Part shown: positions 30,794 through 31,357 of the stretch, one piece after another | Layout: every line of letters begins with the position of its first letter | How positions within the stretch are numbered: position 1 is the stretch's first letter | Source of the DNA: Parachlamydiales bacterium | GTDB taxonomy: Bacteria > Chlamydiota > Chlamydiia > Chlamydiales > Rhabdochlamydiaceae | Assembly (NCBI GenBank): GCA_963705295.1 | Contig: OY970065.1 | Span: forward strand, 672,001 to 736,000 | Length of the DNA stretch: 64,000 nucleotides | Direction of reading: 5' to 3' | Made by a program: the position numbers and the translations under genes | The notes under the pieces: model-generated | Database searches by the model: none | Told to the model about the DNA's origin: nothing | What the model saw: the letters and a program-made list of their open reading frames with translations, nothing else

Positions 30794-30931
30794 ATGTTTG
30801 ATAAGAATGAAGAAGATGACACTTTTGATCTTGATTTAGAAATGAAGAAAGAAGATGAGCTGCAAGCTCAAGATGGGATGGCTTCTAGAGTCGCGCAGAT
30901 TCCATGCAGTACACGTTGTCCTACGAGATAA
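30794..30931 (+). CDS. lanA: Lanthipeptide precursor LanA1 (45 aa)
   Basis: GGAGG RBS at 30781; MFDKNEEDDTFDLDLEMKKEDELQAQDGMASRVAQIPCSTRCPTR; FDLD leader motif and Ser/Thr/Cys core. Confidence 0.88.
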   Translation: MFDKNEEDDTFDLDLEMKKEDELQAQDGMASRVAQIPCSTRCPTR

Positions 30932-30934
30932 GTT

Positions 30935-31072
30935 ATGATTGATCAAGACCTTTTAGATCTCGATTTGGAAATTAAAGTGGAAGAGCTATCACCTTCACAA
31001 GATGCGAGAGCATCAAAACTTTTTGGACTACCGTGTAGCAACGCTTGTGGTCCACCACCCACCAAAAGGTAA
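30935..31072 (+). CDS. lanA: Lanthipeptide precursor LanA2 (45 aa; missing from ORF track)
   Basis: Manual translation MIDQDLLDLDLEIKVEELSPSQDARASKLFGLPCSNACGPPPTKR; starts 3 nt after LanA1 stop. Confidence 0.88.
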   Translation: MIDQDLLDLDLEIKVEELSPSQDARASKLFGLPCSNACGPPPTKR

Positions 31073-31075
31073 AAA

Positions 31076-31357
31076 ATGGATTCAATTCATAATGAAGATC
31101 TTTACGATCTCGATCTTGAAATAAAACAAAGTGCAGAAGAAGTGCAAGATATTGCATCTCGATCGTTCTGTTCAGCTGCTTGTTATCATAAAAAAGAGAA
31201 CATCATGTTTGAAAAAGTCATAGAATCTTTAGAGAATGAACAACTTTTTGACCTCGACATCGAGATCGAAACAGAAAAAGACTTTTCCTCGGATCTCTCT
31301 TTTATCTCTCGAAATGCGGCGAGCTGCTCGTGCGGAAGTTGTTATTTGTCGAAATAG
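31076..31357 (+). CDS. lanA: Lanthipeptide precursors LanA3+LanA4 in one frame (93 aa; internal ATG at 31205)
   Basis: MDSIHNEDLYDLDLEIK...ASRSFCSAACYHKKENI then MFEKVIESLENEQLFDLDIEIE...ISRNAASCSCGSCYLSK; two leader+core units. Confidence 0.85.
   Translation: MDSIHNEDLYDLDLEIKQSAEEVQDIASRSFCSAACYHKKENIMFEKVIESLENEQLFDLDIEIETEKDFSSDLSFISRNAASCSCGSCYLSK

Follow-up and report, generated by a model that had tools for sequence, protein, structure and literature searches.

Class I lanthipeptide precursors share an FxLD leader motif, and SxxxCTP(G/S)C is a lipid II motif, according to the sections of Walker 2020 drawn on here (PMC7268733). As excerpted from a second source, rings A and B form the pyrophosphate-binding part, nisin(1-12) still binds lipid II, and Lys4 aids binding in epidermin and gallidermin (PMC8538299). 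In the same sections of Walker 2020, 62% of class I precursors are the sole precursor of their cluster, and one class I cluster from Tumebacillus has 10. At least seven of the rows taken from Additional File 2 of that study are Chlamydiae class I precursors with Y-D-L-D-type boxes, including entries for Parachlamydia and Protochlamydia, and a Protochlamydia entry is of the gallidermin-like type. Our literature searches returned no paper that treats chlamydial class I lanthipeptides, only rows of a mining table. Here we describe four short tandem units at 30794-31357 of a 64,000-nucleotide (nt) stretch of DNA (the window) from a Parachlamydiales bacterium of the family Rhabdochlamydiaceae (contig OY970065.1). 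They probably make up the lanA precursor set of a Chlamydiota class I lanthipeptide locus with a minimal layout, judging from their sequences and those of the adjacent enzyme genes. The peptides are not among the rows listed from Additional File 2.

Four tandem precursor units

The array consists of the following features.

30794-30931, plus strand: unit 1, a LanA-like precursor of 45 amino acids (aa) with a TAA stop, the box F-D-L-D-L-E and the core M-A-S-R-V-A-Q-I-P-C-S-T-R-C-P-T-R
30935-31072, plus strand: unit 2, a 45-aa LanA-like precursor with a TAA stop, 3 nt beyond the stop of unit 1, with a weak Shine-Dalgarno (SD) sequence
31076-31204, plus strand: unit 3, with the leader box Y-D-L-D-L-E and the core I-A-S-R-S-F-C-S-A-A-C-Y-H-K-K, which has gallidermin-type ring A/B spacing
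31205-31357, plus strand: unit 4, from an internal ATG at 31205 to a TAG at 31355-31357, with the leader box F-D-L-D-I-E and a three-Cys core
31076-31357, plus strand: a 93-aa open reading frame (ORF) made up of units 3 and 4 (leader-core-leader-core), with no in-frame stop between them

An earlier note on this DNA had placed four tandem units at these positions on the plus strand, and every leader and C-terminal string that it quoted was found, as was C-S-x-x-C in the translations of units 1-3. It had the ORFs 3 nt apart throughout; this holds for the spacers between units 1 and 2 and between units 2 and 3, but units 3 and 4 are joined in the 93-aa ORF. The starts of successive units are spaced 141, 141, and 129 nt apart. 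All four share one reading frame, and the whole array is a single 188-codon frame interrupted by two stops. As to the one unit said to have escaped the ORF caller, unit 2 seems to have gone uncalled, and unit 4 is concealed within the 93-aa call. The array is represented among predicted proteins in public collections by unit 1 (P0121) and the 93-aa ORF (P0122) only, and unit 2 was absent as a predicted protein in a profile search of 5.8 billion proteins.

All four units carry [F/L/Y]-D-L-D-[L/I]-E followed by two to three Cys and three to five Ser/Thr residues, and they lie 2.2 kb from a lanB gene. A regular expression for the leader box has 10 six-frame matches in the 2.13-Mb genome, four of them in the array. 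Hidden Markov models (HMMs) were built with each unit left out in turn and searched against 62,759 six-frame genome segments; the omitted unit was the top non-training match every time, with domain E values of 2.3e-5, 8e-8, 5.4e-3, and 9.6e-3 for units 1-4, respectively, and of 0.036 to 2.3 for the next segment. The codons of the invariant D-L-D-E residues vary synonymously among the units (GAT/GAC, CTT/CTC, GAA/GAG), the pattern expected under selection on the peptide. Identity among the copies at the DNA level is just 52-62%. Tandem Repeats Finder returned no rows for the array, the DNA repeat being too diverged, and Rfam had no matches over 29500-38000. Chance does not account for the kinship of the four units, which are genuine precursor genes of an established type.

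Comparison of the cores with gallidermin-like precursors

Precursors were sought at 24 chlamydial LanB loci (L011-L014 and L045-L064). LanB homologues occur in 38 of the 401 Chlamydiota genomes sampled, and class I lanthipeptide genes are thus fairly common in this phylum. Near-canonical gallidermin/epidermin-like precursors are encoded at L014 (11951-12151, minus strand), L045 (14944-15135, minus strand), L047 (16384-16590, plus strand), and L057 (16793-16975, minus strand), with cores of the form I-T-S-[K/R]-S-L-C-T-P-G-C-...-S-F-C-C. In a joint alignment, the (A/I)-S-(R/K) of the window units stands opposite T-S-(K/R), and two Cys residues stand opposite the ring A and ring B Cys; in unit 3, I-A-S-R-S-F-C-S-A-A-C is aligned with I-T-S-R-S-L-C-T-P-G-C. 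When a profile of the four units was set against one of the four gallidermin-like chlamydial precursors, 36 columns reaching from leader box to ring B matched with a probability of 73% and an E value of 3e-5.

Unit 3 also matches NF038155, 'FDLD family class I lanthipeptide', at 26.0 bits (cut-off 20). Its residues 8-36 fall on positions 1-34 and so cover all 34 positions of the model, which likewise scores a gallidermin-like chlamydial precursor; units 1, 2, and 4 score below the cut-off or not at all. The gallidermin-like precursor of L045 reaches 48.2 bits with TIGR03731 and 23.3 bits with NF038155.

Units 1-4 differ from each other in the size of ring A. The spacing from Ser to the first Cys is i+4 in unit 3, and it is enlarged to i+7 in units 1 and 2 and to i+6 in unit 4. 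Each core has a basic residue at position 4 and ends 3-7 residues past the ring B Cys, and the C-terminal half of the gallidermin type is missing. On the evidence of model, alignment, profile, and LanB tree (below), the cores can be read as shortened gallidermin-type relatives retaining rings A and B alone; by sequence, they resemble AB-ring-only peptides, with homology to the N-terminal portion of gallidermin-like precursors. The two-ring layout proposed at the outset, with one ring closed between the (A/I)-S-(R/K) Ser and the first Cys and a second within S-x-x-C, matches rings A and B of these relatives in the alignment.

Compared with the gallidermin/epidermin/nisin type as a whole, the locus shares an FxLD-type box, a full-length LanB and a LanC, the S-x-x-x-C-[S/T]-x-x-C spacing in unit 3, and the basic residue at position 4. 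It differs in that ring A is larger by two to three residues in units 1, 2, and 4, in the missing C-terminal half, and in having no linked LanT, LanP, LanD, or immunity genes. The motif S-x-x-x-C-T-P-(G/S)-C is found in none of the units; its spacing is kept in unit 3 alone (S-R-S-F-C-S-A-A-C). None of the four units keeps the conserved T-P-G of gallidermin/nisin-type ring B, so target binding is conjectural. Provided that maturation of the cores takes place, nature would offer in them a test of which share of the gallidermin scaffold is required and what enlargement ring A tolerates.

Modification enzymes and a second cluster

Genes for both enzymes of a class I system lie on the opposite strand, beyond one intervening gene.

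33602-36253, minus strand: LanB, a class I lanthipeptide dehydratase of 883 aa (PF04738, 3.5e-122; PF14028, 6.7e-44)
36235-37371, minus strand: LanC, a lanthionine cyclase of 378 aa (PF05147, 6.1e-62), overlapping lanB by 19 nt (lanC-lanB operon)

LanB contains both the glutamylation (PF04738) and the elimination (PF14028) domain, and its PDB matches include NisB and related dehydratases. Among the 103 columns with at least 90% identity across 116 homologues, it retains 95 and departs in eight, through six conservative changes and two deletions. LanC is a stand-alone cyclase in which GLAHG, DAWCYG, and CHG align to NisC (2g02), motifs that hold the zinc ligands and the active-site His. Neither gene has a frameshift or internal stop. 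Complex prediction for LanB (52-row alignment) and unit 1 (alignment A1) reached scores of 0.10 and 0.08, where the mark is 0.32, which speaks neither for nor against their interaction.

Named relatives of this LanB come from Rhabdochlamydia, Parachlamydiaceae, Neochlamydia, and Simkaniaceae metagenome-assembled genomes, and the nearest relatives (P0002 and P0003) share 44 and 42% identity with it. Placement of the genome in Chlamydiota rests on these named relatives, on the Atlas neighbors of a 285-aa protein (below), and on a type III secretion ATPase encoded elsewhere in the genome. A quick maximum-likelihood tree of 30 rows was built with a single ORF (850 aa or longer) for each locus, recognized by a pair of LanB motif strings, and the remaining long ORFs of those loci were left out. 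The window LanB falls in a five-row clade (support of 98 in the Shimodaira-Hasegawa-like approximate likelihood ratio test, SH-aLRT) with the LanBs of L045, L047, L048, and L052. L045 and L047 have single gallidermin-like precursors, and L048 has six precursors with short cores. The top tblastn match of the window LanC is the LanC of L048 (47%).

The genome holds a second class I cluster at L011 (G000:C1:80000-99999, about 7077-13498), with one precursor, a LanC of 461 aa, a LanB of 1054 aa, and a convergent gene for an M4 thermolysin-type peptidase. Its precursor has the box P-Y-D-L-N-I-E-F and a six-Cys core and is encoded directly upstream of its enzyme pair. The cluster lies directly past type III secretion genes (SctN-type ATPase, YscO-like protein), and the M4 peptidase is a candidate for removing the leaders of the window units. 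The earlier note had a single LanB/LanC pair serving a small library of peptides. LanA-type units do stand beside one pair, but with the second pair and its precursor the genome does not have one pair only.

That the window peptides are instead matured by this second pair (G000:C1, about 87-92 kb) or by other enzymes is conceivable, since the pair is complete, with its own precursor and a neighboring M4 peptidase, and the array stands outside the operon of the adjacent lanC-lanB. The second pair, however, is already provided with an upstream precursor of another kind, and the array is just 2.2 kb from the adjacent lanB. The tree also separates the two enzymes: the window LanB groups with LanBs whose precursors align to the units, and the second LanB is in a different clade. 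We regard maturation by enzymes other than the adjacent pair as highly improbable.

Related loci in Chlamydiota

Precursors at the 24 LanB loci were counted by regular-expression scans, and matches with no start codon, leader-like N-terminal part, or Cys-rich end were discarded by eye. One recognizable precursor was found at 15 loci and at least two at three (six at L048, three at L049, and two at L057); these scans recognized none at the other six. The suggestion that several precursors per enzyme pair are unusual for class I was overstated, given these three loci together with the 62% and the cluster of 10 in the sections of Walker 2020 cited above (PMC7268733). The multi-precursor clusters in those sections resemble the array in having several distinct LanAs per LanB/LanC; their cores are longer than those of the window, and a fusion is described for none of them there. 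Apart from its ring A/B-only cores and a possible two-cassette precursor, which are its noteworthy features, the array belongs to an otherwise ordinary multi-precursor class I locus.

The closest counterpart is L048 (G196:C1:366000-385000), whose lanC and lanB are surrounded by six monocistronic LanA genes for short divergent cores (12087-15875, minus strand). It comes from the same bacterial family and has several LanAs with an L-Y-D-L-D-I-E-L-K-type box, LanC and LanB with no transporter or protease, and a LanB in the same clade as that of the window; three of its six precursors have [S/T]-x-x-x-C-[S/T]-x-x-C. In contrast to the window units, its precursor genes are about 200-500 nt apart, on the lanC-lanB strand, and unfused, and they have longer leaders. 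The LanB match at L048 contains one TAA in its N-terminal part.

A profile of the four units (A1), which the earlier note had proposed as a way to find relatives, recovered its own four units across the 401 phylum genomes along with three weak matches (E 0.0016-0.0087); the L048 precursors were not found with it at E<=0.01. Against 5.8 billion proteins, the same profile returned unit 1 itself only, from 45 candidates, and phmmer with the 93-aa ORF against 1.84 billion representatives returned only the query itself at E<=0.001. The unit pattern occurred at 593 stretches in a scan of metagenome contigs, none of which was confirmed, and a LanB search of genome contigs yielded only four distant actinobacterial loci with 25-26% identity. 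The collections searched thus held no further member of the peptide subfamily of the window.

Several observations weigh against the array being the precursor set of the adjacent enzymes. On the side of the peptides, NF038155 scores unit 4 at 11.2 bits, below its cut-off of 20; units 1 and 2 match no Pfam or NCBIfam precursor model at E<=1; TIGR03731 (gallidermin/nisin, cut-off 29.3) matches no unit at E<=1; BLASTP gave no alignment of unit 3 with the L045 precursor; and the T-P-G of ring B is gone from all four. LanB is short for its family, with 883 aa compared to about 950-1080 aa in relatives, a shortfall put at about 120-170 residues. It lacks about 39 residues near residues 216-226, and two of the highly conserved columns are lost to deletions. 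The array lies on the strand opposite lanC-lanB with a gene of a multi-copy family between, whereas at L011, L048, L046, L053, and L059 a precursor gene shares the strand of lanC or lanB and lies just upstream of one of them. The scanned window proteins included no nearby ABC transporter, protease, decarboxylase, or immunity protein, the neighbors being housekeeping genes. Last, the fused frame of units 3 and 4 rests on one assembly.

Much of this would fit a decaying relic in a reduced intracellular genome, with truncated gallidermin-type cores, a lost stop in unit 3, a LanB with deletions, and no mature peptide. The ends of the cores, 3-7 residues past ring B, and the distribution of the cluster point the same way: it was not found in 17 genomes of the same genus, in which the lone LanB match (G006) is of the second-cluster type. 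Decay is at odds, however, with the four units, each of which has its start codon, its leader box, and Cys in the two aligned columns, with synonymous changes in the box. It is also at odds with LanB and LanC genes that are free of frameshifts and internal stops and still encode most of the conserved LanB columns and the metal-site motifs of LanC. Three of the six L048 precursors, those that were aligned, also end a few residues past a ring-B-type C-[S/T]-x-x-C, and L048 likewise has no transporter or protease, so this minimal layout recurs. We consider a relic improbable and favor a lanA precursor set that serves the adjacent LanB and LanC.

Translation signals and the junction of units 3 and 4

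Three further features bear on expression of the array and its enzymes.

30781-30785, plus strand: GGAGG ribosome-binding site (RBS) of unit 1, with a duplex energy of -9.3 kcal/mol, the only strong RBS in the array
31190-31195, plus strand: run of six A residues (A6) at the junction of units 3 and 4, identified by three-frame translation and a run-length test
37380-37408, minus strand: promoter-like site TTGATA-17-GATAAT upstream of lanC, a 10/12 consensus match only

Promoter and terminator scans of the region gave matches no commoner than in shuffles. Duplex energies were calculated with a generic anti-SD string. The SD pairing of unit 1 is equalled by just 1% of 2782 internal in-frame ATGs, and the energies for units 2, 3, and 4 (-3.0, -3.9, and -2.9 kcal/mol) are at background level. 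Since the only strong SD is at unit 1, units 2 and 3 would most likely be translated by reinitiation across the 3-nt spacers, and unit 2 is probably translationally coupled to unit 1. No stop precedes unit 4, and as assembled it would therefore be made mainly as the tail of the 93-aa polypeptide.

The frame of unit 3 passes from ...CYHK through K-E-N-I to the Met of unit 4, and the sole nearby TAA (31189-31191) lies out of frame. If the A-run is shortened by one base, unit 3 stops at a TAG (31221-31223) after 48 aa; if it is lengthened by one, unit 3 stops at a TGA (31210-31212) after 45 aa, as in units 1 and 2. Three readings of the fusion follow. The first is a true loss of the stop, for which one TAA-to-AAA change at the run may have sufficed. 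The second is an error or variation in the run that hides the stop. In the third, the sequence may be correct, with extra internal initiation at the ATG at 31205.

Under the second reading, the fusion is non-biological: a one-base error or a variable A6 run would conceal four separate precursor genes, with the unit 3 stop overlapping or close behind the start of unit 4, an arrangement as tightly coupled as that of units 1-3. A run of five or seven bases places that stop less than 20 nt from the unit 4 ATG and gives a product of 48 or 45 aa, in line with the 45 aa of units 1 and 2. Units 1, 2, and 4 finish 3-7 residues past their last Cys with a basic residue, and the H-K-K of unit 3 sits exactly on the run. 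The start region of unit 4 is identical to that of unit 1 at 23 of 36 aligned positions, the best of six pairs, and resembles its RBS/start region as if unit 4 had formerly started by itself. There is no second assembly for comparison: a lone member on a lone contig makes up the LanB cluster, the 93-aa ORF has no relative, and no copy of the locus occurs elsewhere in the searched collections. One soil metagenome run gave a single 192-nt contig that matches the window over 30500-30582 only (0 differences) and does not cover the array.

Against an error, the genome is not indel-ridden. It is one 2.13-Mb contig with ORFs of at least 150 aa covering 91%, and most of the 27 scanned window proteins match Pfam models near full length, with a break in none of the 27. 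The assembly is not error-ridden, and it may still have a single error at the junction. A lone TAA-to-AAA substitution accounts equally well for the fusion with no error, and because all units share a frame, any loss of a stop joins them in frame. Four separate genes split by a hidden stop are a genuine possibility, which we rate somewhat short of an even chance.

The 93-aa ORF could otherwise be a natural two-cassette precursor. It is a single stop-free frame, with a background-level SD at unit 4, known from one assembly that has an A6 run where the two units join. In multi-core precursors of other peptides made by ribosomes and modified after translation (RiPPs), such as the cyanobactin PatE-type and multi-core microviridin precursors, one polypeptide likewise carries more than one core, as excerpted from PMC5934393 and PMC13343206. 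In those, one leader is followed by repeated cores, whereas each core of the window polypeptide has a full leader, probably through a recent stop loss, and has no evident excision sites. Two-cassette precursors are unreported for lanthipeptides according to a 2026 paper. A bolder proposal is that both cores of the 93-aa ORF are matured and that the four products are AB-ring-only gallidermin relatives, acting as minimal pyrophosphate/lipid II-binding modules with no dedicated exporter in an obligate intracellular, lipid II-dependent bacterium; we hold this doubtful. If the fusion is real, it would be the first case of two lanthipeptide cassettes in one polypeptide, and it would show tandem precursor genes giving rise to a multi-core precursor through one stop loss.

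In a class I precursor of Parachlamydia acanthamoebae, a single leader contains both F-F-D-L-N-D and L-Y-D-L-D-L-R-I-K, two FxLD-like boxes, as given in rows 48, 214, and 1228 of Additional File 2 (PMC7268733). This leader may be the relic of a fused tandem unit, and it hints that fusions occur in this group.

Proposed biosynthesis

For transcription, mode of translation, modification, ring pattern, and target, we infer the following route, in which the maturation steps are taken by analogy from what is established for NisB/NisC-type enzymes. The array would be transcribed as a single message on which the strong RBS of unit 1 is used, with units 2 and 3 following by termination-reinitiation over the 3-nt spacers. 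As the sequence is assembled, unit 4 would be produced as the C-terminal half of the 93-aa polypeptide. The adjacent LanB would bind the [F/L/Y]-D-L-D-[L/I]-E box and dehydrate Ser/Thr residues of the core by glutamyl-tRNA-dependent glutamylation and elimination, and LanC would then close thioether rings onto the core Cys residues. The expected products are peptides of about 13-20 residues, with ring A from Ser3 to the first Cys and ring B from Ser to Cys i+3. Leader removal and any export would depend on unlinked genes.

Neighboring genes

Two further genes flank the array.

31358-33673, plus strand: a 771-aa P-loop (NB-ARC-like) and tetratricopeptide repeat (TPR) protein that begins directly past the stop of unit 4 (TPR_12, 2.3e-34; NF040586, 210 bits over residues 76-415)
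29875-30732, plus strand: a 285-aa protein of a multi-copy family, upstream of the array, with no Pfam, NCBIfam, or PADLOC match

The family of the 771-aa protein occurs at eight more places in the genome (40-61% identity) and that of the 285-aa protein at nine more (24-30% identity); neither occurs at any of the 24 other LanB loci, and PADLOC has no match for either gene. Both had been considered as parts of the system and were dropped on these grounds; they are probably not cluster-specific but mere neighbors. The 771-aa family consists of paralogues of about 770 aa that combine an NB-ARC-like P-loop and TPR repeats with a hydrophobic stretch predicted at the N terminus. The 771-aa gene and lanB are convergent, and their 3' ends overlap by 72 nt as ORFs (33602-33673). 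The nearest Atlas clusters of the 285-aa protein are Chlamydiota hypothetical proteins, and the family is seen mostly in Chlamydiota. By eye, the H-x-D-x4-N and D-x-G pattern of this protein recalls kinase-like folds, and one Atlas neighbor at 0.88 is a cluster with YrbL-PhoP_reg in 22% of its members. Elsewhere in the window, 21865-22872 encodes a protein of 335 aa in which a domain of eukaryotic type, F-box-like, is recognized (PF12937, 2.5e-7).

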